A stretch of DNA of 64,000 nt from Candidatus Shapirobacteria bacterium (GTDB lineage Bacteria; Patescibacteriota; Microgenomatia; UBA12405): contig JACPHO010000006.1 in NCBI GenBank assembly GCA_016188545.1, positions 693 through 64,692 on the forward strand, written 5' to 3'. Made by a program: the position numbers and the translations under genes. Each line of letters begins with the position of its first letter. Position 1 is the first letter of the stretch. The notes below the pieces were generated by a model, which was given only the letters and a program-made list of their open reading frames with translations, had not been told where the DNA came from and ran no database searches. Below are positions 7,451 to 59,795 of this stretch, one piece after another.

Positions 7451-8905
7451 GTGGACAGTATCAACACCTCAATCAAAAGTCACACCGGACTCATCATTAT
7501 AATAGCTATCGCTGTTAGCTTTGTCTTCCCTGGGTTTGGCTCCCAACTAAAACCTTATCTCAACTCATTTTTAATTGCCATGATGTTCCTTAGCTGTCTT
7601 GACCTTAAGATATCCGAAATCGTTCATAGCCTAAGTGATTTCAAAAACATTTCTTTAATGCTCGTCATTGTTCACATGGTATCCCCCTTAATAATATTTT
7701 TACTTCAAGGCTACTTCTCCCCACCTGTATTTCTCGGGTTGATTATTTCTGCCACGATTCCTGCCGGCCGTAGCGCCGTCTTTTTATCACACATCTATGG
7801 TGGAGTTCCCATTAAAGCCCTAGTGTCTACCTCGGTCAGTAATTTTCTCAGCCCAATTACTGTTCCACTTTTTGTTTGGGTCTTTGCCCATACCGTCATC
7901 AAAATGGATCTTTTCGATATGAGTCGGACAATAGTTTATCTTGTAGCAATCCCTCTAATACTGGCGGTACTATTCGGTAAAACAAAGTATGGCCATAAAC
8001 TAAATGAATACTCACCCAGTATTTCGATAGTCATTTTATTCTTCATCATCTTGGGAATTATTTCGCCACTAAAAAATGTCGTCGTCGAAAATCTTCAACT
8101 ATCACTAATTCTGGGAGTCGTAATTTCTGTTCTGATCGTCGTCGACTTTTGCCTCGGCTACTTTTTAGGCAAAAATCACCCCGAGAAAGTTACCTACGCT
8201 ATCAGTAGTAGTTACAAAAACTACACCTTAGGAACACTTTTAGCCTTGACTGTTTTCACTCCTCTAGTCGCCCTACCATCAGTTATTTATACAGTCGTGT
8301 CTAATCTACTTTTGATTCCACTCCAAATGTTTCTTGCACCAAAAACTAAACCCAAGCCACACCACCATCACAAACGTCACAATGTTTTTCTCTTGGTGTC
8401 AGGGGTGTTTTTCGCCATAGTCCTCGCCTATAGTCCACTTCTCAACACTCTTCTTGAATACTTTTCCCCACACCCCCTCATTACTGCCTTCATTGCTGGT
8501 GTGCTGTTTGCCTCAACTTTTACAGTTGCCACAGGGGGCATACTGCTTATAAAGCTCAGTGAGCATTACTCCCCCCTCCTTCTGATTCTTTCCGCTGGTA
8601 TGGGTGCAGCTTTTTGCGACTATCTAATTTTCTCCCTCGTCAAAGACAAAGCTCCAACTCATGTCGCCCCTGTTTATAAAAACATGTTCAACCATAGTCA
8701 TCTCCATAAGATTCTCCATACCCATTACTTTGCTTGGACTTTACCAGTCATTGGCGCCATTGTTATGGCTTCACCTCTTCCTGATGAAATAGCTGTCAGT
8801 CTTTTGGGGATATCCAAGTTAACTGATACCAAATTTATACTTATAGCCCTAACCTCGCATCTAATCGGTATGGCCATCGTCGTTGCCGGTTCTAGACTAC
8901 TTTGA
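7451..8905 (+). CDS. Polytopic membrane protein; N-terminal bile acid:Na+ symporter (BASS)-like domain plus C-terminal 4-TM domain
   Basis: 484 aa; BASS-like signature ISATIPAGRSAVFLSHIYGGVPIKALVSTSVSNFLSPITVPL; His-rich linker KPKPHHHHKRH; more TM helices follow. Confidence 0.55.
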   Translation: MDSINTSIKSHTGLIIIIAIAVSFVFPGFGSQLKPYLNSFLIAMMFLSCLDLKISEIVHSLSDFKNISLMLVIVHMVSPLIIFLLQGYFSPPVFLGLIISATIPAGRSAVFLSHIYGGVPIKALVSTSVSNFLSPITVPLFVWVFAHTVIKMDLFDMSRTIVYLVAIPLILAVLFGKTKYGHKLNEYSPSISIVILFFIILGIISPLKNVVVENLQLSLILGVVISVLIVVDFCLGYFLGKNHPEKVTYAISSSYKNYTLGTLLALTVFTPLVALPSVIYTVVSNLLLIPLQMFLAPKTKPKPHHHHKRHNVFLLVSGVFFAIVLAYSPLLNTLLEYFSPHPLITAFIAGVLFASTFTVATGGILLIKLSEHYSPLLLILSAGMGAAFCDYLIFSLVKDKAPTHVAPVYKNMFNHSHLHKILHTHYFAWTLPVIGAIVMASPLPDEIAVSLLGISKLTDTKFILIALTSHLIGMAIVVAGSRLL

Positions 8906-8942
8906 CATGGTATTCTTAGTTGTTAATGTTTAATCTCTTCCC

Positions 8943-9260
8943 ATGAATATTCAGATCATTGGTGATAACTTTAACGTCTCTCAAAGCACTAAAGACCTTG
9001 TTGAAGAAAAAGTCGGTAAACGATTAGATAAACTCCTGACTAAGTTTGCCCCGGAAATGAAAATAGTCCTGATGCATATTGAAAAGGATAAATTTGACAA
9101 CCTTCACATCAACTTGGATATGAACCTCCCAGGTAAAGAACACATCTTTGCTAACACCTCACACAAAATTCTTGAGTCAGGACTAATTCACCTCGCTGAA
9201 GAAACAGAAAAACAAATTAAAAAATATAAAGACAAACTCGCTAACTATAGCCTGGGTTAA
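8943..9260 (+). CDS. hpf: Ribosome hibernation promoting factor (HPF/RaiA, short form)
   Basis: 105 aa; MNIQIIGDNFNVSQSTKDLVEEKVGKRLDKL matches the HPF/YfiA N-terminal pattern. Confidence 0.75.
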   Translation: MNIQIIGDNFNVSQSTKDLVEEKVGKRLDKLLTKFAPEMKIVLMHIEKDKFDNLHINLDMNLPGKEHIFANTSHKILESGLIHLAEETEKQIKKYKDKLANYSLG

Positions 9261-9276
9261 CACGATATACTGACTT

Positions 9277-10152
9277 ATGTTCCTAGCACTGCTGGTACTA
9301 TTACTTGTCGTATTTGCGCGGCCTGCTAACGCTCAAATTCCCCTATTCTACCAGCTTCTTGAAGCATATCATCCTGTTTACTATTACAATCCCATCATCA
9401 GTCTTTCTAGTCCAGAAGTTCTTGGTGTCGGAACAAGTGCTACAGCTACGGCCACCCCCACTTCTGCTCCTACTAATATTGGTGGTGGTGACAAAGTAAC
9501 CACCATAGCTCTTTTAGGTGATTCCATGATTGACACCCTTGGCCAATATGTCACTACCCTCGACCAATCCCTTGCTCGCCAGTACCCAAATCGCTCGTTT
9601 AACCTTTTAAATTATGGCGTTGGCAGCCGCGACATCGAATACGGTCTCTATCGTCTAACTAATGGTTATGAATATCAAGGAAAACATATCGACAGTTTAG
9701 TTTCCGCCAACCCCGATATTGTTGTCGTCGAATCATTTGCTTACAACAACTTTGGCAACACCCAGCCAGGTATTGATCGTCACTGGCTAGCCCTTGGAGC
9801 GATCACCACTACTATTAAACACCGACTTCCCAAAGCCAAGATAATTATTGCTGCTACTATCGCCCCCAACTCCATTGTCTACGGCAATGGCATTAAAGAC
9901 CTCCATCTAACTTCACTCGAAAAAATTGAAAAAGCTAACACCACCAAACTCTATCTCCAAAACGCCATCAATTACGCTACTTCTCAAGGGTATCCCTTAG
10001 CCAACGCTTATCAAGCCAGTCTTTCTGGTAACGACGGTCAGCGTCAATATATCAGCTCAACCGACAATCTCCACCCTTCAGCAATGGGTGCTTCACTTTT
10101 TTCTGACTCCATTGCTAAGACTATTGAAAAACACAAGTTACTTGAGAATTAA
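9277..10152 (+). CDS. Secreted SGNH/GDSL-family hydrolase
   Basis: Signal peptide MFLALLVLLLVVFARPANA; block-I motif ALLGDSMID with catalytic Ser. Confidence 0.65.
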   Translation: MFLALLVLLLVVFARPANAQIPLFYQLLEAYHPVYYYNPIISLSSPEVLGVGTSATATATPTSAPTNIGGGDKVTTIALLGDSMIDTLGQYVTTLDQSLARQYPNRSFNLLNYGVGSRDIEYGLYRLTNGYEYQGKHIDSLVSANPDIVVVESFAYNNFGNTQPGIDRHWLALGAITTTIKHRLPKAKIIIAATIAPNSIVYGNGIKDLHLTSLEKIEKANTTKLYLQNAINYATSQGYPLANAYQASLSGNDGQRQYISSTDNLHPSAMGASLFSDSIAKTIEKHKLLEN

Positions 10153-10159
10153 TTCAAAG

Positions 10160-10378
10160 TTAAGCCGAAGCAGGTCCTACTATTCTCACTGTTGGCATTC
10201 CTGAGAAAGCTCTCCTAGATTCCTCTTCTAACTTTTGACGAATTCTCTCTGCTTCTGCGGCTGAAACAGTTTCTTTTGACCACAACGGACGACTTACACC
10301 ATCTTGATGAGTAAACATTCCCGGTACCAATCTCTCAATGATAACTTTCCCTTCAACTGCGGTTGCTGTTACTGCCAT
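10160..10378 (-). CDS. Hypothetical small protein
   Basis: 72-aa ORF, GC-richer than surroundings, immediately downstream of the next small ORF (two-gene module). Confidence 0.3.
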   Translation of the reverse strand: MAVTATAVEGKVIIERLVPGMFTHQDGVSRPLWSKETVSAAEAERIRQKLEEESRRAFSGMPTVRIVGPASA

Positions 10379-10384
10379 ATTTTT

Positions 10385-10636
10385 TTAATAACTTCTAACT
10401 AATAACTCACCACACTCACAGGTTATTTCATTTGGAATACGCCTCAAAAATGCCCCAAAATCTGGGGCATCCGTCAATTTAAATTCTTTTATCTGTAAAA
10501 TCTTGTCATCACTTACTCTAGGAACAGTACATCTCAACCCACCGCACTTATGAACATAATAGGTCAACACTCTACCAGTTACCTCACGACTCACTGCTAT
10601 TGTCGCCATTTGCCAATTGTAGCATACCCGATACAT
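10385..10636 (-). CDS. Hypothetical small Cys-containing protein (possible zinc ribbon)
   Basis: 83-aa ORF; KCGGLRC ... CEC Cys pairs; likely start at the internal MATIAV. Confidence 0.3.
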   Translation of the reverse strand: MYRVCYNWQMATIAVSREVTGRVLTYYVHKCGGLRCTVPRVSDDKILQIKEFKLTDAPDFGAFLRRIPNEITCECGELLVRSY

Positions 10637-10801
10637 ACTCTGTCTACCACTAAAGACTTAAAATTTAGGTACAAAAAGTAAAATGTTTGTGATATATAAA
10701 TATTATGATTTTAAAAATAAACTACGCCAAAAAGACAAGCATGGTCTAGGTAAAAACTTATATCATTGCCATAACTTCGGATTTGTTTTACAATATCAGC
10801 C

Positions 10802-10981
10802 ATGGCCAAAGCAAAAAAAACACCTCGGATTTTGATCGCCCTCAACTGCGCAGTCTGTGGAGCACAAAACTATCTTTCCGAAAAGAATAAAACCAATACT
10901 CCAGACAAACTCAAATTCATCAAGTATTGCAACTGGTGCAAAAAACGTACCGAACACAAAGAATCCACCAAACTAAAGTAA
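10802..10981 (+). CDS. rpmG: 50S ribosomal protein L33
   Basis: Not in the ORF track (59 aa). MAKAKKTPRILIALNCAVCGAQNYLSEKNKTNTPDKLKFIKYCNWCKKRTEHKESTKLK carries the L33 zinc-ribbon pattern C-x2-C ... C-x2-C and NTPD. Confidence 0.85.
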   Translation: MAKAKKTPRILIALNCAVCGAQNYLSEKNKTNTPDKLKFIKYCNWCKKRTEHKESTKLK

Positions 10982-11039
10982 TCCGTAATTCGTAAACCGT
11001 AAACCGTGTTACGTATTACTTTTTACGTATTACGAAATA

Positions 11040-11837
11040 ATGAATAATCTCGAAAACATCTACATCTCCCCTCTCGAACTGTGTAATTTGCGTTGTCTAT
11101 ACTGCTACACTGACAAAACTAAAAGTATTTTGAGTAACGATCAAATACTGAGTTTTATCGATAATTACTCTCATCTTATTCATAAATCATATTTCCTAAA
11201 TCTTAAATCAATTATCTTCTGTGGTGGTGAAGTTTTCACTCTCAAAGACTTTCCGTCTCTTGTCAACACTGTAATATCTAAAGGTATTTTTGTCTCAGTG
11301 ATTACCAACGGTGTTATCGACCGTCTTGATGAAATTAAAGAACCACACAATTGCCAACTCATCGTTTCCTTCGACGGCCCTCAAAAAATCCACGACCATA
11401 ACCGAGGTAAAGGAAACTTCAAAAAATCAAAAGGTTTTGTCAAAAAAGCCCTAAGGTTAGGTTTTCCGATCGAAATATTTTATCTAATCACCAAAGATTC
11501 TTACCCCTACAAAGACACCTTTCCTAAGTTGTTTTATTCATACTTCATACTTCATAAATCATATATCCATTTCACCTATCTTACCGACCGTCTCGGTTCA
11601 CTGACCAAAGACCAGGAAAAAGACATCCGCACTAACTATCCTTGTTATCCACCCAAAGATTTTGGCTGCAATGTCTTCTCTTTACAATCAAATGGTAACT
11701 TTTATGGATGTTGTGAATCAGCCCGATCCATCGGAAATCTAAGCGACCCGCTTATGCCAACAGTCCGCAAATATCTTGATATCATCACCCTCCACCCCAA
11801 GTGCTCCGATCCTGATTATTGGTGTGGGCTAAAATAG
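11040..11837 (+). CDS. Small radical SAM enzyme with C-terminal Cys-rich (SPASM/twitch-like) region
   Basis: 265 aa; CNLRCLYC (CxxxCxxC) at residues 15-22; C-terminal CNVFSLQSNGNFYGCCES and CSDPDYWCG. Confidence 0.65.
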   Translation: MNNLENIYISPLELCNLRCLYCYTDKTKSILSNDQILSFIDNYSHLIHKSYFLNLKSIIFCGGEVFTLKDFPSLVNTVISKGIFVSVITNGVIDRLDEIKEPHNCQLIVSFDGPQKIHDHNRGKGNFKKSKGFVKKALRLGFPIEIFYLITKDSYPYKDTFPKLFYSYFILHKSYIHFTYLTDRLGSLTKDQEKDIRTNYPCYPPKDFGCNVFSLQSNGNFYGCCESARSIGNLSDPLMPTVRKYLDIITLHPKCSDPDYWCGLK

Positions 11838-11887
11838 CCAAACAACCTGGTTATTTGCTCACCATCAAAAAAGCGATAGAATTTACT

Positions 11888-13285
11888 ATGCCAACAACCC
11901 AAGATAAGGCCAAAGAAGTTTTACTTCACAATCTTTATGAAGTTGAACTAAACCACATCCTCTACCGCCGCACTGTACCTTCCCGCGAATTTTATATCCA
12001 TCAATGGAATTGGGATTCCGCCACTCACGCCATGGGGTTAGTTCACATCGATCCAAGTCGTGCCTATGATGAAATAATCTCCTTAATCTCCGGACAATGG
12101 GACAATGGGCTGATTGCTCAAATAACCTTCAACCCCAATGAGTCTAAGTATTTTCCCGGACCTCAATTCTGGAACACCCAGCAATTTTCCCAAGGGGAAA
12201 TATCCACTTCGGGTATAACCCAACCACCACTTTTGGGTTTTAGCATCTGGTATGTTTATCAGAACTCTCCTAATAAGAAGGCTGCCACTGAGTTTTTATC
12301 AAAAACTCTCCCCGCCTTAAAAAAATACCATCATTATCTAAAAACGTTCCGTGACCCAGAAGATTCTGGGTTGTTAACAGTCGTTCACCCTTGGGAAAGT
12401 GGTTTAGATAACAGCCCTCGTTGGGATGACCCACTCAAAAATATTAGCTTAGACTCCATTCCCGATTCAGTAAAAATTTTGGTAAATACTTACAGAAGTG
12501 ACAACAAGATCGGTAATAACACACATCGTCCTGGTCTTGAAGATTACTATCGCTATATGTATTTAGTTTATCTATTCTCGGAGTGGAAATGGGACTATTC
12601 TAAAATAGTTACCGATTCACCATTTGCTGTTAAAGATATCTTGTTTAATTCACTTTGGGCATTGTCAAATGAGGCACTTTCCTCATTATGTTCAACTGTT
12701 AGTGAATCTGAGGATGCAGCTTATTTCCTAAAGCTCGCCAACCAAACCTCACTCGCCATTCAAAAACAGTGGTCGGATTCAGAATCACTTTTCCAAGACG
12801 TTGATGTTAGCCTCGGTCAACACAAAGCAATTACGTCTAATACCATTTCCACCTTCTCCCCATTAATGACTTCCGGTGTCACTCTAGAAATTATCAAGTC
12901 TTTGCACACCCGACTAAATGACCCTTCACAATACGCCACCCCATACCCTCTTCCCACTACCTCACTCAATAATCCTGTCTTTGAAACCAAACGTTACTGG
13001 CGTGGACCCACTTGGCCTATTACCAACTTATTTACCATTCTCGGACTACATCGTTATCGTCAAAACCAAAAATGTCTGCAGCTTAGAGATAATTTAATTA
13101 ATAATACCAAGCAAATGATAGATTCATCGGGGTTTTTCGAATACTTTGATCCCACTCTTGGTTTGGCACGTCCCAACAACCAAAATGCAGCTTACGGTTT
13201 TGGATCCTTTAGTTGGACAGCCGCTATTTACACTATACTTTCGCAACCAAACTTTACAAAACTCAAACTACCTCTAGAAACCTAG
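11888..13285 (+). CDS. Glycoside hydrolase, GH63-like (alpha/alpha)6-barrel (mannosylglycerate/glucosylglycerate hydrolase-like)
   Basis: About 465 aa from ATG 11888 (the ORF-track start 11819 overlaps the upstream gene). Long soluble protein with a W/Y/acidic-rich catalytic-domain pattern (VVHPWESGLDNSPRWDD, YWRGPTWP) typical of GH63/GH15-like enzymes. Confidence 0.5.
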   Translation: MPTTQDKAKEVLLHNLYEVELNHILYRRTVPSREFYIHQWNWDSATHAMGLVHIDPSRAYDEIISLISGQWDNGLIAQITFNPNESKYFPGPQFWNTQQFSQGEISTSGITQPPLLGFSIWYVYQNSPNKKAATEFLSKTLPALKKYHHYLKTFRDPEDSGLLTVVHPWESGLDNSPRWDDPLKNISLDSIPDSVKILVNTYRSDNKIGNNTHRPGLEDYYRYMYLVYLFSEWKWDYSKIVTDSPFAVKDILFNSLWALSNEALSSLCSTVSESEDAAYFLKLANQTSLAIQKQWSDSESLFQDVDVSLGQHKAITSNTISTFSPLMTSGVTLEIIKSLHTRLNDPSQYATPYPLPTTSLNNPVFETKRYWRGPTWPITNLFTILGLHRYRQNQKCLQLRDNLINNTKQMIDSSGFFEYFDPTLGLARPNNQNAAYGFGSFSWTAAIYTILSQPNFTKLKLPLET

Positions 13286-14506
13286 CTGTTTAAGTTTTTC
13301 CTCTACTGCTTCGTGTGAAAAATACTTCCTGGCGATTTCAAAATTAACATCCGTCATCTTTTTTATTTTTTGTTTATCTGCCAGTATTTGCCGAACTAGT
13401 TCCACTGTATTATCAGTAACTTTTCCATTAATTGCTATTGTCTTAAAACCTAATTTCTCCAAGTCAGTCCGATAAACTTTGTACCTATTTATAAATACCG
13501 GCACTCTAAAATAAATTGCTTCGATAAACTGATTTCCAAAACCTTCAACTTCAGAAGGGTAAGTCATCAGGTCACAGTTATGAAAGCAGTCCCATAAAGT
13601 GTAACTCCTTCTACCGTTTATTATCATCCGATTTGCTTCGACCCTATCGCCAATAAAAACAGCTCGAATTTTTTTAGATTCCACCAATTTCCTCAACTCT
13701 CCCTCATAATCACCAGACTCATCTCCATGCCTCCCCGCCAACACCAAGATTACTCGAGGGTCATTCAACTTAGCCACCAGCTCAATCGATAGTTCAATTT
13801 TTTTGCGAGGCACAATCCTGGTAGCCTGCAAAAATACAATGTCGCTTTTACTTATTCCAAAATCCTTCCGCCACTGTTGTGAAAACCCATTTTTATACGC
13901 TTTTAGATTATTAAAATCAAAACAATCTCCGATAACCATCGAATCAACCCCCGCTCGTTTTTTAAGTTCTAGCGCCGAAATGCTATTGATAGTTACGTGC
14001 TTTATCAGCGGACTAACAGGTGGGAAAAATTTTTGAAAAAACTCAAAACAACTGGACCTCAAATATCTTTTCCTCTCCCACCAAAAGTCATGATGTTTGG
14101 CAATTGTCGGAATTTTGAGATCATCAATTACTCTCGATAAGGCTACCGCCAATGGGAAATGGATTGGCAGACTAAAAACATTTGCCACAATTAAAGCGTC
14201 GAATTTATTATTGATAAACTCTTCCCTTAATACACCCTCAATCCTTCCCGCCAATTCATATATCCTTTTTTCTATTTTTCGATACGAAATATGGTTATCT
14301 ACCACCTCCCGGTGAACTTCGTTGACATTCGGACTGGTAAAGTGGAGCTCTGGAATCAGAATACCCCTCCGATCCAATTCTCCCGCTACAAACACCACCT
14401 TGTGCCCCATTTTTTTCAGTATTTTTCGCCACCGCACCGCCTCCAGGCTAACTCCATCATTTCCCGCAATCCTAAATGACAAATATCCGATTTTCACTAA
14501 CCCCAA
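13274..14506 (-). CDS. Glycosyltransferase family 4 (GT-B fold)
   Basis: 410 aa; C-terminal donor-binding EX7E-like region (TYPSEVEGFGNQFIEAI) and GT4/GT1 architecture. Confidence 0.65.
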   Translation of the reverse strand: MGLVKIGYLSFRIAGNDGVSLEAVRWRKILKKMGHKVVFVAGELDRRGILIPELHFTSPNVNEVHREVVDNHISYRKIEKRIYELAGRIEGVLREEFINNKFDALIVANVFSLPIHFPLAVALSRVIDDLKIPTIAKHHDFWWERKRYLRSSCFEFFQKFFPPVSPLIKHVTINSISALELKKRAGVDSMVIGDCFDFNNLKAYKNGFSQQWRKDFGISKSDIVFLQATRIVPRKKIELSIELVAKLNDPRVILVLAGRHGDESGDYEGELRKLVESKKIRAVFIGDRVEANRMIINGRRSYTLWDCFHNCDLMTYPSEVEGFGNQFIEAIYFRVPVFINRYKVYRTDLEKLGFKTIAINGKVTDNTVELVRQILADKQKIKKMTDVNFEIARKYFSHEAVEEKLKQLGF

Positions 14507-14757
14507 TATATTATTAGCTCACCAGTAAATCAACCACCACTTCTAATTTACTTCTACTTAAGTATCCCCATCCTGATTACAGGTGTGGATAAAATAATAA
14601 TTTAAAGAAGTAATCGTTTTTATAGTCTGTTTCCCTGTCCGCCTGTGGCGGAAACCTGCATTGCAGACTTGATTCTCGTCAATAAAAAATGGTTACAAGG
14701 ACTTGATAAGTTTTAGTTATAAAAAATATCAAAAAAGTTTTTAGGTACAATACACTC

Positions 14758-15621
14758 ATGACCCTCTCCGAATTGCTAAAATTCACCCGCCAATACTTCT
14801 GGAATCTAGGATTTGAAGAAGTCGAGGTAAATTATTTAAACGAGTCCCTCCCCCTTGAACCAAATCTCTATTCATTCGAGACAGTTTGGCGCAATCTCGG
14901 GACAAAATACTATCTGCCAACTTCTCCGGAATTTGCCTTAAAAAACTACTTAGCCAACCACAAAATAGACTGTTTTAGTATCAGCCATTGTTTTCGTGAC
15001 CTGGAAAATAGTGGACCTCAGCATCACCCTGAATTTATAATGTTGGAGTGGTATGAGGTACATAAAAGTTTGAATGACATTCGTACCTCTACTGAAAAAT
15101 ATCTAAAAAAACTAATTCCCGAAATTACTTTTACCTCTTTGACCCTTCCCCAAAATCTTCCTGACAACGAACCTGATTTTAACCAGTTTTTCCTCAACAA
15201 GATCGAACCAACCATTCCCAAAGAAGGCGCCGTTTTTATCACTGGTTATCCGTCATTTTTAAGTCCACTTGCGATACGAGAGTCTGGTGAAGTATACAAT
15301 TTTTTAGAGCACAGCGATCGCGACCAAGCTAGAGCGGAGCCCGAAGGTAGCGAGCATCTAAAAAATTCGTATACAAGCCATAGATTCGAGCTCTACATCA
15401 ATGGTATTGAAATTGCCAATGCTTGCGAGGAAAACCGCGACCCAGAACAAATAAAGTCTGCCTTTATAAGTGAACAAAATTTTCGTCAAAAAAAATCCCT
15501 TCCCTCCCATCCATTTTCTGAAAAATTCATCACAGACTCCTCGCAACTCCCTCCTTCGAGTGGCATTGGACTTGGTTTGGAACGTTTGCTAATGTTAATA
15601 AACCACTCCCAAAAGATATGA
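14758..15621 (+). CDS. Class II aaRS catalytic-core paralog, EpmA/PoxA (EF-P lysine ligase)-like
   Basis: 287 aa, no anticodon-binding domain; LysRS class II motifs FRDLENS..HHPEFIMLEWY (motif 2), ELYINGIEIANACEE, GIGLGLERLLML (motif 3). Confidence 0.6.
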   Translation: MTLSELLKFTRQYFWNLGFEEVEVNYLNESLPLEPNLYSFETVWRNLGTKYYLPTSPEFALKNYLANHKIDCFSISHCFRDLENSGPQHHPEFIMLEWYEVHKSLNDIRTSTEKYLKKLIPEITFTSLTLPQNLPDNEPDFNQFFLNKIEPTIPKEGAVFITGYPSFLSPLAIRESGEVYNFLEHSDRDQARAEPEGSEHLKNSYTSHRFELYINGIEIANACEENRDPEQIKSAFISEQNFRQKKSLPSHPFSEKFITDSSQLPPSSGIGLGLERLLMLINHSQKI

Positions 15622-16286
15622 TCGATCAACCCCAAGACCGCCGCGGTAAAGTCATGGCTGACACAACCACTCTTATGCTTCTCAAAAGTATTAAGGAGTT
15701 GGAGAAAAAATCGACCACTGACTCTCTCACTGGGTTACACAATCGGGACTTCTGGGAACAGGAAACCCCCATCCTCGAACAATCTAAGCGTATGGGATAC
15801 ACCATAATTTCCATTGATGTTGACGGGCTAAAAGAAATCAATGATTCAAAAGGACATCTGGCCGGTGATATTTTGATAAAAAATGCCGCCAACATCCTCA
15901 GGCATACGTTTCGCATCGAAGATCATCTAATTCGTCTCGGTGGTGATGAGCTTTGTGTGATTGTTCCATATGATATGGATCAATTCAAAAACGCTTACGA
16001 GGAATATTTAATAAATACCCTCGACCAGGACGAGTCCAAAGTTCCTAGTATGGAGCAGTTCATAGAGAAAATCCTCACAGACCGATTTAATGACAAAATA
16101 GCTGCTTTCAGTAATTCCCCTGAAGCTGGAGAATATCAAGTAGCTCTTTCTTTTGGGATGTGTACTTCCCTACCCAACGACAACCTTACACCACCTCACA
16201 ACCTAACCAAAGCTTTTAATAACGCCGATGCCCGCATGTATCTAATGAAAGAACTTCATCACCAGTCAGTCACAAATAATATATAA
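15618..16286 (+). CDS. GGDEF-domain protein (diguanylate cyclase-like; motif reads GGDEL)
   Basis: 222 aa; SLTGLHNR, IISIDVDGLKEINDSKGHLAGD, RLGGDELCVIV. Confidence 0.7.
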   Translation: MIDQPQDRRGKVMADTTTLMLLKSIKELEKKSTTDSLTGLHNRDFWEQETPILEQSKRMGYTIISIDVDGLKEINDSKGHLAGDILIKNAANILRHTFRIEDHLIRLGGDELCVIVPYDMDQFKNAYEEYLINTLDQDESKVPSMEQFIEKILTDRFNDKIAAFSNSPEAGEYQVALSFGMCTSLPNDNLTPPHNLTKAFNNADARMYLMKELHHQSVTNNI

Positions 16287-16293
16287 TTAGTCT

Positions 16294-16464
16294 ATGGCCC
16301 AACAACAACAAAAAAATACTCGAATTAAAGCACCTCAAAAACCAATGATGACTCTACCTCCCAAACCATTCTCGCAACCATTCAACAAGCCTTTCTTCAA
16401 CAACAAACAGAAAAGTTTTGCCACTGCTTTTCGCACCCAGAGTAAAGGGGGCGGAGGAAAATAA
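16294..16464 (+). CDS. Hypothetical small low-complexity protein (56 aa)
   Basis: ATG...TAA ORF MAQQQQKNTRIKAPQKPMMTLPPKPFSQPFNKPFFNNKQKSFATAFRTQSKGGGGK; not in the ORF track; basic and Pro/Gln-rich. Confidence 0.2.
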   Translation: MAQQQQKNTRIKAPQKPMMTLPPKPFSQPFNKPFFNNKQKSFATAFRTQSKGGGGK

Positions 16465-16551
16465 CCACAAAAATAAACCAAAAACAATGTTACAATAGGT
16501 TACAAGAGTCAGTCTGTACATTTTAGCTTTTTCTTATACTTTTGTCTTCCT

Positions 16552-17031
16552 ATGACCCCTAAAAACACCAATAAAATCGGCAACTATCTGATCGATTCTA
16601 ACCAAGTCTACTCCATCTATAAGATCGAAAACGACCGTCTTTTCTACCGTCCAGCAGTCAGTGGTGGCAACCACCCTTCTGTCACTGGATCTATTCCTGA
16701 GGCCAACATTGCCATGGCTGGTTTTCGTCCACTGTTAAGCGCCGAAGAAATCAAAACCTTCTTTACTCAGTTAATTAAAGTCCGTCCAGCTACTGAGCCA
16801 ATTGACTCCAAGCTTTTCAAAGAACTTCTAATCAACAACAACCCTCTCGAAATTATTCCCTTACTTAAACAGCTTTGGAAAACCAAAAATCTTCCCAATA
16901 CTAACTTTTCCGGCACAAATCGCGATACTTTAGAAGATATCATCTCCCACCTAACTTTGGAATTCTCCCTAGCTACCAAAAAATCCCCCGATTCCATTCG
17001 TAAGAAGATAATGGCTTCTCTGGTCAAATAA
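16552..17031 (+). CDS. CarD/CdnL-family RNA-polymerase-binding regulator-like
   Basis: 159 aa; N-terminal IGNYLIDSNQVYSIYKI..RLFYRP and SIPEANIAMAGFRPLLSAEEIKTFFTQL resemble the CarD_CdnL_TRCF domain. Moderate certainty. Confidence 0.45.
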   Translation: MTPKNTNKIGNYLIDSNQVYSIYKIENDRLFYRPAVSGGNHPSVTGSIPEANIAMAGFRPLLSAEEIKTFFTQLIKVRPATEPIDSKLFKELLINNNPLEIIPLLKQLWKTKNLPNTNFSGTNRDTLEDIISHLTLEFSLATKKSPDSIRKKIMASLVK

Positions 17032-17697
17032 TTATCGTTTTCCAGTTCCAAAAATCAGCGCTGTAGCCGTACCCTTTGTACCTATCCCTACGTAATTCCA
17101 CCGGTTATTCACTTGATTATCATCATGTGGCTTATCACCAGCATAGACCCACTCAATTAGATGTACACCCTCCATCCTATATCCAAAACTAATATTTTCT
17201 CCAACCCAAGTAAATCCTAGCTTGTCATAACCATTATCCTTTTCTAAAAAGTCAACAAACCCCTTGTGCTCATCAGTCGACTTAATACTAAACAAATAAT
17301 CAGCCCTACTTTTGGCATATTTTGCCAAGCCTTCATCCCAGGTTAGTCTTTGTGATCCCCGTCTGACCCGATACTCATTAAGAGCATCAAGTATCTCTTT
17401 GGGTGTTCCCATCCTTTCATCATGTCCTACCTGCATAGTCCAAGTATGTTCGCCCACTTGTCTAGCTACACCCCATTCCCCTGTGGGCACAGCTCGAACG
17501 GGTATCTTAGTCGATATTACTTTAACAATTTTCTGTGTCGGTATCGGAGTCATCGTCAGCGTTGGTTCAACATCTTCTTTTATCTTTTGGATTTTGATTT
17601 TTGGATTTTCTTCGACAACATATCCCACCATTGGATCAATTATTTTGGTTGTAAAAAAACTTAGAACCCAAGCGATCAACATTGAAATAAATTCCAT
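17032..17697 (-). CDS. Membrane-anchored CAP/SCP/PR-1-like domain protein
   Basis: 221 aa; N-terminal TM helix; CAP motifs HTWTMQVGHDE, GENISFGY, HYTQVVW-like WNYVGIG. Confidence 0.55.
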   Translation of the reverse strand: MEFISMLIAWVLSFFTTKIIDPMVGYVVEENPKIKIQKIKEDVEPTLTMTPIPTQKIVKVISTKIPVRAVPTGEWGVARQVGEHTWTMQVGHDERMGTPKEILDALNEYRVRRGSQRLTWDEGLAKYAKSRADYLFSIKSTDEHKGFVDFLEKDNGYDKLGFTWVGENISFGYRMEGVHLIEWVYAGDKPHDDNQVNNRWNYVGIGTKGTATALIFGTGKR

Positions 17698-17710
17698 TCC
17701 CTATTTTACC

Positions 17711-17983
17711 TTACGCCACTATTCTCAACACCACCGGCAAAGCACCTATAAAATCCGCCACACCCATACTTACATCTGAGGGTAAAATTGCTAAGTTCAC
17801 TCTGGCTTCAACTCTAACTCCATTGCCATTAACAAATCCTGCCTCAGGCACCACATCGCCATCATTTAGATGTCTTCTTTCAATTGCGTTTAAGGGAATT
17901 TGTGACTCAACCTTGGCTGTATGCCAATACATAAATGAAGTCGACGCCCCATTCACTCGATACTGCCAGATACCTCCTGCCAT
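17711..17983 (-). CDS. Hypothetical protein
   Basis: 90-aa ORF only; no recognisable motif. Confidence 0.2.
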   Translation of the reverse strand: MAGGIWQYRVNGASTSFMYWHTAKVESQIPLNAIERRHLNDGDVVPEAGFVNGNGVRVEARVNLAILPSDVSMGVADFIGALPVVLRIVA

Positions 17984-18114
17984 ATTACTTATTATACTCC
18001 TTCTCTCTTCCTTCCTAAATTAGGATATTTTTTGTTAAAATCAAAGGCACCTTAGCAAAACAATATCTCATTTCTCAATTGAAAATTGTTTATTGAAAAT
18101 TGAAGATTAATTTT

Positions 18115-18186
18115 AGGCCCATAGTGAAATGGTTATCACTGGGATCTCCAAAATCTCCATTCGAGGTTCGAATCCTCGTGGGCCTG
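18115..18186 (+). tRNA. tRNA-Trp (anticodon CCA)
   Basis: AGGCCCATAGTGAAATGGTTATCACTGGGATCTCCAAAATCTCCATTCGAGGTTCGAATCCTCGTGGGCCTG; acceptor AGGCCCA/TGGGCCT, anticodon loop CTCCAAA, T-loop TTCGAAT. Confidence 0.8.
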
Positions 18187-18206
18187 CATACCTGTCTTTA
18201 TAATTA

Positions 18207-18824
18207 TTAGGCAACAAGCTTCTCAAAGTTTTCGTAAAAATCCAACACTATTTCTCTGGCTTTCTCTACCGAACATATATTATCAATAACATTTATTATC
18301 TCCTCGGCCACTCCAATTGGTAATTTCGTTACCCCAACAAAACTTCTCACAGCCTCATTGCTATTAGTAGACAAAAAATATTTTGACAACATCTCATGCC
18401 ATTTTTTTATCTGAGATTCTTCAATGCCATAATTACGTTCTTCGTCGTATATAGAATTAAAATAGCCTGCCACAACTTCATTGTTTACAAACTTATTTGC
18501 CAAGACTCCATCTTCAAATAATTTCATCGCTTGTGTTTTATATGGTGACTCTATAAAAAAATCATACAACCCTCTCTCAACCACAAACTTCTCCCTTGCA
18601 TGATCGACCAGTGAGTGAAACTTTACTCCAGCTTCAAAAGAATCGCTCAATATTATTTCTGATAAACGAATCTTTCCGAAATGAGTCTTCTCCCGATCAA
18701 TTACTCCCAAATATCGGATGTCAGGGAAACTCGTCCCCACCACAAACTTTCCAATATCCTTACCATTAAAAAACTTATCAAATACTTTCTCTGCTATTAC
18801 CACGTGTGTTGTTGGTGCTGCCAT
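18207..18824 (-). CDS. Hypothetical protein (possible metal-dependent hydrolase-like His/Asp pattern)
   Basis: 205 aa; HVVIAEKV, FPDIRYL and FHSLVDH blocks; no confident family. Confidence 0.35.
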   Translation of the reverse strand: MAAPTTHVVIAEKVFDKFFNGKDIGKFVVGTSFPDIRYLGVIDREKTHFGKIRLSEIILSDSFEAGVKFHSLVDHAREKFVVERGLYDFFIESPYKTQAMKLFEDGVLANKFVNNEVVAGYFNSIYDEERNYGIEESQIKKWHEMLSKYFLSTNSNEAVRSFVGVTKLPIGVAEEIINVIDNICSVEKAREIVLDFYENFEKLVA

Positions 18825-19485: not shown

Positions 19486-19642
19486 AATGTCCGGAATAGT
19501 TTATATTCTTAGGTCACAAAAGAAACTATCAAAATTGCTAGGCAAATTGAATACAAATTAAAAAGATTAAAAAATAAAAAAATAATTGAAATGATAATAA
19601 CCAAGGGTGAACTATTTATTAACAAAAAAGAAAACATAAACT

Positions 19643-19720
19643 GGTAGCACGGTCCGAAAGCTTTCGGACAGGTCAAGGGGAAGTTTATCCGCCAGTGGCG
19701 GAAGTCCCCTTGGGTCCACA
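19643..19720 (+). pseudogene. tRNA-like pseudo-fragment (D-arm + same palindrome + T-arm with hairpin insertion + acceptor 3' end)
   Basis: TGGTAGCACG GTCCGAAAGCTTTCGGAC AGGTC AAGGGG aagtttatCCGCCagtGGCGGaagt CCCCTTGGGTCCACA; the 3' end is near-identical to tRNA-Ala but lacks CCA and has a 25-nt T-loop insertion. Confidence 0.4.
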
Positions 19721-58972: not shown

Positions 58973-59749
58973 TCAACCAACCAGTCCAAAAGTCAATATT
59001 ACCATTCTATCGATCACAACTTCTCTCCCACTCACTCGCTCGTGAAAGTTTTTTTGCCACTTTTTAAACTCAACATTTGTCAGATATGCCAAAACAGAAA
59101 AAGGCCGCGACTGTGTCCACATCTCCAAGGTCGATGGTGTAAACTGCTTTTTAACAGTCAAAATCACCCTATTTATAAGAGAAAAACCACCATCCGTAAA
59201 CGCTCTGACTATCACCGGCTCGTCCGGAGTTCTGGATAATTCTCTTTTCAAAACCTTTTCGAGTGACCGACAATAAGGTAACCCATAAAACTGCTCATGA
59301 TTAGTACTGGCAATAATCATGCTCCCCTTATCGCTAAGTATGGTCTTAACTCTGTTTACTAATCGTGGCAGATCGCCAACAAAGTGAATGCTTTGAAAAA
59401 ATATCACCAGATCAAACTTTATTGAAGACAGCTTCTCCGTCCAACCATTATCAAAGTCAGCTTTAATTACCTCTACATTAGTGAGCCCCTCTCCAACCAC
59501 ATTGTCCCTCAAACTTATCAGCATTTCCTCGGACAGGTCTACCCCCACAAACTTTTTATGTGGATACAGTTTTGCCAGTGGAATCAACAATCTACCCGAA
59601 CCACAGCCCAAATCTAAAATCGTCTCACTTGTCTCAACCTTCAGAGATAACTCTATCAACACCTTGCACAAAGCCCTTCTTCCCAAGGCTCTCTTGTGGC
59701 TAAAGTCTTTGGCCAAAACCGCTAAAATATCTTCCCTGACTAGACTCAT
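58973..59749 (-). CDS. Class I SAM-dependent methyltransferase
   Basis: 258 aa; motif I ILDLGCGSGRLL, acidic motif II VGVDLSEEM. Confidence 0.75.
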   Translation of the reverse strand: MSLVREDILAVLAKDFSHKRALGRRALCKVLIELSLKVETSETILDLGCGSGRLLIPLAKLYPHKKFVGVDLSEEMLISLRDNVVGEGLTNVEVIKADFDNGWTEKLSSIKFDLVIFFQSIHFVGDLPRLVNRVKTILSDKGSMIIASTNHEQFYGLPYCRSLEKVLKRELSRTPDEPVIVRAFTDGGFSLINRVILTVKKQFTPSTLEMWTQSRPFSVLAYLTNVEFKKWQKNFHERVSGREVVIDRMVILTFGLVG

Positions 59750-59795
59750 AAACTTGGAGATTATATCTTAAAAAAGTTGAATAATCCACAACTTA

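Follow-up and report, generated by a model that had tools for sequence, protein, structure and literature searches.

How do two metabolic genes come to lie inside a compact gene block without destroying the genes on either side, and why does the end of one of those genes then appear twice? The question is raised by a 64,000-nucleotide (nt) stretch of a Candidatus Shapirobacteria metagenome-assembled genome (hereafter the window; G+C content low, at 39.7%), in which a radical-SAM gene (rSAM) is separated from the gene for an EpmA/GenX-like protein (EpmA) by a 2.7-kb segment holding a glycoside hydrolase gene (GH63) and a glycosyltransferase gene (GT4). The last codons of rSAM recur imperfectly beyond this segment, and a first-pass annotation of the window proposed that a two-gene sugar-metabolism cassette had inserted at the rSAM 3′ end with duplication of its target. 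The best explanation of the locus, and one that we hold to be probable, is that the second copy of the repeat is a relic of the original rSAM 3′ end and that the GH63+GT4 segment was inserted by recombination. The gene end is duplicated, the site is empty in relatives, and the second copy lies in the context of the ancestral right flank.

Results

The end of rSAM recurs beyond two convergent genes

The repeats lie at the sites described by the first-pass annotation, except that the core of the second copy begins at 14570, not at 14569. Copy 1 has its core, ATCCTGATTATTGGTGTGGGCTAAAATAG, at 11809-11837 and terminates in the rSAM stop codon (TAG, 11835-11837), the gene ending in ...AAG TGC TCC GAT CCT GAT TAT TGG TGT GGG CTA AAA TAG. 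The core of copy 2, ATCCTGATTACAGGTGTGGATAAAATAA, occupies 14570-14597, in the intergenic region that separates the minus-strand GTG start of GT4 (14497) from the EpmA start (14758); the letters from 14560 to 14597 are AAG TAT CCC CAT CCT GAT TAC AGG TGT GGA -TA AAA TAA, and the core translates in frame as LTSKSTTTSNLLLLKYPHPDYRCG*. This second copy had been called in frame and startless, and it is not an open reading frame (ORF): a TAG stop stands in front of it, and it contains no ATG, GTG or TTG. A local alignment of 11799-11836 with 14560-14596 has 30 of 38 columns identical and one 1-nt gap (score 21), the similarity of the copies running 10 nt farther upstream than the 29-nt core first noted. 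Between the copies stand exactly two genes, MGH1-like/GH63 and GT4, which are convergent and overlap by 12 nt at their 3′ ends (Table 1); both the ORFs and the Pfam matches bear out the earlier description of this segment.

As a blind discovery over the whole window, the repeat is marginal. When any 60-nt tile was allowed a partner within 5 kb, with dinucleotide shuffles as the null, 16 of 2122 real tiles reached a score of 21, and it is because shuffled windows yield about 1.6 such pairs each that we grade it so. A focused test compared the last 63 nt around the rSAM stop with the 260-nt GT4-EpmA intergenic region, and here none of 5000 dinucleotide shuffles reached 21 (mean 8.4, maximum 17). 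At the homologous position of a related locus, L001, which was assembled independently of the window genome, the score is 20, and again none of 5000 shuffles attained it (maximum 19). The similarity, which might have failed against an AT-rich background, thus passes in the focused comparison and recurs in L001. Among all fetched loci, the core motif GGTGTGG[AG][TC]?TAAAA is confined to copies 1 and 2 of the window, L001 and L042, the last of which is 99.8% identical to L001 and was not counted as a separate genome. A second direct repeat, TTATT(T/A)GCTCACCA..AAA (11851-11869 and 14510-14528), had a local P of 0.03 and is missing at the L001 left junction, and was treated as chance.

The site is empty in most relatives

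Scanning one genome per species with the rSAM protein gave 40 relatives, mainly Candidatus Shapirobacteria and other Microgenomates, whose rSAM orthologues are 43-81% identical across the 40 loci. The L33 gene lies directly upstream of rSAM in about 38 related loci, and of the 38 loci with both rSAM and EpmA, 36 have EpmA directly after rSAM. The intervening distance ranges from -23 to +216 nt and commonly lies between -4 and +7, so that the genes abut or overlap; relatives without the cassette, which the first-pass annotation had proposed to look for, were therefore found. The order S30AE-(GDSL)-L33-rSAM-EpmA is kept in about 35-38 loci of Shapirobacteria and Microgenomates, including those with the most distant rSAM orthologues (window 8943-15621; L001-L040), S30AE often lying 25-40 nt from L33, and no GT4 occurs within 8 kb in these conserved-block loci. 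The window arrangement is common only to L001, in which rSAM is 81% identical, while L003 has GT4 alone. In a tree of the flanking genes (L33+rSAM+EpmA), the window and L001 are sisters with 93-100% bootstrap support, and their nearest relative, L002 (75%), has an empty site.

The sequence that follows copy 2 connects the occupied and the empty sites. The L001 spacer after copy 2 aligns with the rSAM-EpmA spacer of empty-site L002 at a score of 30, which none of 3000 shuffles reached, and with those of L009, L019 and L034 at scores of 30-34, against a shuffle maximum of 21. The element in question, TTCGCAG...TTGAACGTGG..CACATTCAC...AAAAA.T.TTTACAAGAA in L001, stands between the rSAM stop and EpmA in L002, L009, L019 and L034, and the window spacer retains only its promoter-like part, which aligns with L001 and these four. 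Since spacers that follow rSAM at empty sites are homologues of the one after copy 2 in L001, copy 2 stands where the ancestral rSAM ended; copy 2, the spacer and EpmA are best read as the ancestral right flank, and the 2.7-kb segment as an insertion.

This non-coding spacer element consists of an inverted repeat, TGAACGTGG-n-CCACATTCA, then an A-run and then the promoter-like box TTTACAAGAA (L001 ~11553-11630; L002 ~8826-8900; also L009, L019 and L034). At the equivalent place in the window (14624-14720) there is a different stable hairpin with a CCGCCTGTGGCGG core (z = -3.7), and either the element or the hairpin may serve the EpmA-like gene as an operator or leader. A hairpin core in common with 14639-14651, CCGCC(A/T)GTGGCGG, occurs in a GC-rich, structured-looking stretch at 19640-19720, about 150 nt downstream of a tRNA-Ala gene, which has nested stems GGTCCGAAAGCTTTCGGAC and CCGCCAGTGGCGG with flanks GGGGAAG/CCCCTTGGG and no Rfam match at the gathering threshold.

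The duplication is old and the relic is conserved

The L001 relic, at ~11478-11506, reads TCAGACTGTTGGTGTGGATTAAAAAAATAA, and the end of L001's own rSAM reads CCAGATTATTGGTGTGGATTAAAATAA. The two relics have decayed at different positions: copy 2 of L001 retains TGG and GGATTAAAA where that of the window has AGG and GGA-TAAAA, and the window copy retains ATCCTGATTA at positions that are decayed in L001. Combined, they reconstruct ..ATCC(T/A)GATTATTGGTGTGGATTAAAATAA, a sequence that agrees fully with the L001-type rSAM end for 29 nt or more; the copies were therefore identical over at least 29 nt when they formed. The relics thus place the insertion event before the split of the window and L001. 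Since 4-fold degenerate sites of the two genomes are only 43% identical, which amounts to saturation, the event is old rather than recent.

Given this saturation, the state of the relic suggests constraint. The 3′ half of copy 2 is identical at 19 of 21 positions between the window and L001 (P ~1e-5 under neutrality), the spacer is largely unalignable, and the conservation of the relic reaches a few bases past its homology to copy 1. Recent gene conversion from copy 1 does not account for this, because the window relic matches the L001-type rSAM end, and not the window's own, at three synonymous positions. Some constraint on the relic is likely. For copy 1 the constraint is a coding one, since the C-terminal motif of rSAM (hP-x-C-x-DP-x-Y-x-C-x-L) is kept across orthologues.

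The 1-nt deletion in copy 2 yields TTATCCACA on the minus strand at 14584-14592, where L001 has TAATCCACA. An origin of replication with a cluster of DnaA boxes at copy 2 was considered and rejected: 64 kb of sequence should hold roughly one perfect 9-mer by chance, the box at 14584-14592 is the only one, and no others cluster around it. Four DnaA-box-like 9-mers, with one mismatch each, fall within 560 nt at 59231-59790. GC skew, computed in 4-kb windows, is negative throughout 1-64000 (-0.18 to -0.39), with no switch, and is much stronger than in most bacteria.

GT4 occupies the same site alone in other lineages

In three or four other lineages (L003, L086/87 and L088), GT4 alone is found at the same site, in the order L33-rSAM-GT4(-)-EpmA and with neither GH63 nor a relic. 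The convergent pair in the window therefore need not have entered as the single two-gene unit first proposed. In the GT4-only loci, the GT4 stop shares its bases, in antisense, with the final codons of rSAM (CTA AAA is read as Leu-Lys or, from the opposite strand, as Phe-stop), and EpmA starts 25 nt from the GT4 start, within the GT4 promoter and between its -10 and -35 blocks; three genes are packed here with overlapping signals on both strands (L003 9950-10010; L086 and L088, reverse strand).

The GT4 proteins of the two types form one clade, the window protein being 92% identical to that of L001 and 69-71% identical to those of L003, L086 and L088. In the tree of flanking genes, by contrast, the window type groups with empty-site L002 and the GT4-only type with empty-site L004-6 (80%), a joint clade receiving 0%. 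The style of the junctions follows the relatives of each type, with a spacer like that of L002 in the one and a compact arrangement like that of L004-6 in the other. Such a pattern suggests that GT4 alleles have moved among related backgrounds, or that the site was targeted repeatedly, more than it suggests one clean vertical history. GT4-only alleles share the GT4 promoter with the window up to AAATCAACCA; their left junctions differ, and the junctions are too diverged to read. When the 25 nt between the GT4 -35 block and copy 2 are compared with the GT4-only EpmA 5′ end, only AAATCAACCA is common, followed by background similarity. Loss of GH63 by a microhomology deletion would be possible, since CTA(A/G)AA stands both at the end of rSAM and at the antisense end of GT4.

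Elsewhere GT4 keeps company with L33. Among metagenomic contigs carrying GT4 relatives (48-62% identity), L33 adjoins in 24 of 43, mostly divergently, and GH63 lies between in seven. Where L33 is linked, GH63 and GT4 point in one direction instead of converging, and none of these loci has rSAM, EpmA or S30AE. Such loci occur in other Microgenomates (L044-L081, e.g. L046 6340-9311 and L076 7736-9248), and a PGA_cap gene comes next in L046 and L076. More broadly, GH63 and GT4-family genes are adjacent in many contigs of the candidate phyla radiation (CPR), in three different arrangements, Woesebacteria-like contigs having them co-directional. A convergent GH63/glycosyltransferase pair in Dojkabacteria (L093/L094, 12-nt overlap) was rejected as a donor, its glycosyltransferase being only 34% identical and of another GT4 subfamily.

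Searches for mobility machinery

Target duplications made by a transposase usually span 2-15 bp, and the inserted element has terminal inverted repeats and carries a transposase gene. In the window, the duplication is at least 29 and probably 38 nt; the left end of the insert, compared with the reverse complement of the right end, gave a best score of 8 (P = 0.48), showing no terminal inverted repeats, and the list of inverted repeats includes no boundary pair. No transposase, integrase or recombinase domain was found in any ORF at 7451-18824, a range that covers the insert and 14 neighbouring genes. We therefore rejected a transposon insertion with target-site duplication. Of the first proposal, insertion at the rSAM 3′ end is supported by the empty sites, the focused test, L001 and the homology of the spacer, and it is the transposon-type target duplication that does not stand.

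There is no tRNA within 3.5 kb and no Rfam element in the region, so that a tRNA or known RNA was rejected as the integration target. Also rejected was a dif/Xer-like site, for which, by eye, a left arm matches E. coli dif at 9 of 11 positions and the remainder has no match. Neither relatives of GT4 nor the repeat core occurred in the viral contig collection, and no relic of GT4, GH63 or rSAM was found upstream of L33 in the window.

Genes and elements of the locus

The features of the locus are collected in Table 1. The window GT4 and GH63 proteins are exact matches to NCBI entries named Candidatus Shapirobacteria, and the neighbouring genes comprise SBF, S30AE, GDSL, two small ORFs, L33, rSAM, the EpmA-like gene, GGDEF, CAP and unknowns.

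Table 1. Positions of the genes, repeat copies and junction elements in the window.
Feature	Position	Strand	Description
Ribosomal protein L33 gene	10802..10981	+	Pfam Ribosomal_L33 E=2.7e-17; first gene of the L33-rSAM-EpmA part of the block
Radical-SAM gene (rSAM), 265 aa	11040..11837	+	Pfam Radical_SAM E=2.8e-15
Repeat copy 1	11799..11837	+	Last 12 codons of rSAM (KCSDPDYWCGLK) and stop; functional, coding
Left junction / GH63 upstream spacer	11838..11887	+	50 nt (31 nt in L001)
MGH1-like/GH63 glycoside hydrolase gene, 465 aa	11888..13285	+	Pfam PF22422 E=1.1e-84; related to glucosylglycerate hydrolase
GT4 glycosyltransferase gene, 407 aa, GTG start	13274..14497	-	Pfam Glycos_transf_1 E=1.5e-17; related to mannosylglucosylglycerate synthase
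Predicted GT4 promoter	14505..14533	-	-35 TTGATT 14533-14528, -10 TATATT 14510-14505; consensus scan
Repeat copy 2	14560..14597	+	Non-coding, probable relic of the rSAM 3′ end; reads KYPHPDYRCG*, no start codon
rSAM-EpmA spacer (probably ancestral)	14598..14757	+	EpmA promoter-like elements (AAAAAATGGTTACAAGGA ... TACAAT); window-specific hairpin ~14624-14670
EpmA/GenX-like class II aminoacyl-tRNA-synthetase-core gene, 287 aa	14758..15621	+	Pfam tRNA-synt_2 E=2.2e-31

The GH63 product scores 285.5 bits against PF22422, well over the cutoff of 27, and its best NCBIfam match is GluglyHdase (glucosylglycerate hydrolase) at 288 bits, below the equivalog cutoff of 550; it is thus a member of the MGH1-like/GH63 family, the equivalog level that would fix its substrate not being reached. 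At the rSAM-EpmA site, GH63 is found only in the window and L001/L042. For the GT4 product, the best NCBIfam match by far is manno_glu_gly_synth, which is full-length at 266.7 bits and below the equivalog cutoff of 640. Enzymes of the GH63 and GT4 families make and degrade glycosyl-glycerate solutes (PMC6608630, PMC5381378, PMC3736172). Judged by family resemblance only, the two genes look like a pair making and breaking a compatible solute of this type, and their functional pairing is plausible.

The -10 and -35 blocks of the predicted GT4 promoter are identical in L001, and the same layout, with a 17-nt spacer between them, recurs in L003, L086 and L088; this promoter belongs to the inserted segment. 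To the right, the window spacer forms its hairpin, with the z-score given above, ahead of the EpmA-like gene, whose product scores 180.5 bits against the NCBIfam model genX/EpmA (TIGR00462), below the equivalog cutoff of 286.9, and for which 'EpmA-like' seems a fair label.

The rSAM gene itself contains a direct repeat of 38 nt, 82% identical, within its coding sequence (11176-11213, ..IHKSYFLNLKS.., and 11534-11571, ..ILHKSYIHF...), and the lengths of its orthologues vary from 744 to 957 nt, which suggests low-complexity insertions. Its product is of a small type (250-320 aa) with a C-x-DP-x-Y-x-C C-terminus, and among its top NCBIfam matches there is no lysine 2,3-aminomutase (EpmB)-like model. 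Across related genomes the rSAM stop often overlaps the start of the EpmA/GenX paralogue, and the two may perhaps belong to an uncharacterised modification pathway, of the EF-P type or another.

Discussion

If the 2.7-kb segment was inserted by recombination, the history of the locus might be reconstructed as follows. The ancestor would have carried L33, rSAM and the EpmA-like gene in one compact block, in which the rSAM stop was followed, after a short spacer or with an overlap, by the EpmA start. A segment of 2.7 kb with GH63 on the plus strand, GT4 on the minus strand and the GT4 promoter would then have become fixed between rSAM and EpmA, in an event that exactly duplicated the last ~29-38 bp of rSAM. 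Copy 1 would have stayed on rSAM, keeping the gene intact, and copy 2 would have been stranded on the far side of the insert, where it kept its connection to the old spacer and EpmA. The relic would since have been kept by constraint, probably as the upstream sequence of the GT4 or the EpmA promoter.

The edges of the segment fit such an event. The left edge is the rSAM stop, since the likeness of the left junction to the sequence after copy 2 ends at this codon, and the right edge falls between ~14540 and 14560. We infer a recombinational insertion rather than a transposition. On the left, the DNA that came in or was copied would have been attached immediately behind the rSAM stop; on the right, the joint would lie ~38 bp upstream of this codon. 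Either a Campbell-type single crossover in the end of rSAM, or one-ended homology coupled with illegitimate joining of an occupied allele to an empty one, could have had this outcome. Competence-like machinery is common in CPR bacteria.

Displacement of a gene end by recombination has a known counterpart in the effector loci of Rhs, CDI and type VI secretion systems (T6SS), in which homology-facilitated illegitimate recombination uses an upstream homology anchor, makes an illegitimate join downstream, so that the old 3′ end of the resident gene comes to lie after the new module (PMC5361080, PMC3240628). In the window, rSAM is the conserved anchor and copy 2 is still joined to the ancestral spacer. 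However, those loci accumulate functional orphan toxin-immunity modules, and their displaced ends differ from the new ones, whereas here the copies were identical when formed and the displaced piece is only ~38 bp. The likeness to a transposon's target-site duplication, in which direct repeats of the target immediately flank the insert, ends with the 29-38 bp length of the duplication and with the want of inverted repeats and a transposase here.

Several points weigh against an insertion by recombination, at least in its simplest form. About 1.6 equally good repeats are expected by chance in the whole-window scan, and the case thus depends on where the repeat lies and on L001, a genome with which the window has ancestry in common. 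The flanking-gene tree does not make the GT4-only carriers sisters of the window, yet their GT4s and that of the window form one clade, and therefore a single simple insertion fails to explain the distribution. In view of the linkage of GT4 to L33 elsewhere, the position of the window insert 0.9 kb from L33 is an unexplained coincidence. The G+C content of the cassette (0.37-0.44) equals that of its flanks and its genes have diverged in step with those of the host, so that nothing marks it as recently foreign. No recombinase is present in the searched region, no donor arrangement was found among the contigs compared, and the junctions have diverged too far for any microhomology to be recognised. 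Moreover, copy 2 is better conserved than would be expected of neutral DNA, and as such is not simply a decaying relic.

A first alternative is that an integrase-driven island entered at the rSAM 3′ end carrying a replacement gene end, copy 1 then being attL and copy 2 attR, and that subsequent deletions removed the integrase and everything else except GH63 and GT4. The locus has the geometry of e14 in E. coli K-12, which is flanked by icd and the C-terminal pseudogene icdC (PMC13626634): in both cases, an insert lies in the 3′ end of a protein gene that a copy of the end keeps intact, a startless C-terminal fragment stands at the far end, and direct repeats, here 29-38 bp and ending exactly at the target stop, flank the whole. 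The empty site in relatives is equally as this model would have it, and the presence of GT4 at one site in two non-sister groups could indicate site specificity. But e14 is a 15-kb prophage with an integrase and site-specific excision, and its icdC fragment is longer, whereas the window insert is 2.7 kb with two metabolic genes and no recombinase, and its repeats, at 79% identity, make excision unlikely. Genomic islands at the 3′ ends of tRNA and tmRNA genes are flanked by att direct repeats. The locus resembles these too, in having direct repeats, some tens of bp long, that match the target's 3′ end, and relatives with an empty site; unlike them, it has a protein-coding target, no tRNA in the vicinity searched and no integrase. 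Counting further against an integrase are the lack of any mobility gene in the cassette or its 14 neighbours and of GT4 relatives or the repeat core on viral contigs, the fact that none of 36 other loci has an island at the site, the GT4-only loci without a repeat, and the native composition of the cassette. We consider this history unlikely.

The coincidence with L33 would be explained if GT4, with or without GH63, had ancestrally lain upstream of L33 and divergent from it, and if a tandem duplication of [GH63 GT4 L33 rSAM] had been followed by loss of the first GH63-GT4 and of the second L33-rSAM, the last 38 bp of the lost rSAM remaining as copy 2. Such a history accords with the adjacency of L33 in 24 of 43 GT4 contigs, mostly divergent and either direct or with GH63 between; it predicts the observed place of copy 2 and the direction in which both copy 2 and GT4 run, and it requires no mobility genes. 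However, the S30AE-(GDSL)-L33-rSAM-EpmA block is deeply conserved, in about 35 loci, with no GT4 within 8 kb; no GT4-L33 contig carries rSAM or EpmA; the window has no GT4 or GH63 relic upstream of L33; and GH63 is co-directional with GT4 in the L33-linked loci but convergent here. On balance, duplication followed by loss seems quite improbable.

We attach similarly little credence to the possibility that the GT4 module is a small, integrase-less mobile cassette, repeatedly targeted to the junction of the rSAM end and the EpmA start by a host or trans-acting recombinase or by the transfer of alleles in natural transformation, with copy 2 kept as a functional att-like or regulatory site. Occupation of the site in two non-sister groups, junctions that match the spacer type of each group's relatives, and conservation of copy 2 at 19 of 21 positions despite saturation would all fit a targeted cassette of this kind. 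Finally, that the two 30-mers are unrelated and resemble each other by chance in AT-rich DNA, any insertion having made no duplication, has a vanishingly small probability and is effectively refuted already: although shuffled windows give about 1.6 pairs of such score within 5 kb per 64 kb and the region holds many weaker repeats, the focused test gives no match as good among the shuffles in either of two genomes (0/5000 in each), the L001 relic retains different rSAM-matching positions, the motif is found nowhere else among the fetched loci, and the position of copy 2 fits the ancestral gene end relative to the conserved spacer.

Taken as an insertion by recombination, the locus offers a clean and fairly ordinary example of a rearrangement, with a known kind of scar and no new kind of system. 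With its scar, alongside the empty sites of relatives and the GT4-only variant, it belongs to a small natural series in which rearrangement without obvious mobile-element machinery can be studied. What the window would document is the gain of genes by a streamlined CPR (Patescibacteria) genome, in which what looks like a solute-gene pair has been wedged into the compact, conserved L33-rSAM-EpmA-like operon with neither neighbour destroyed, and in which the scar can still be read.

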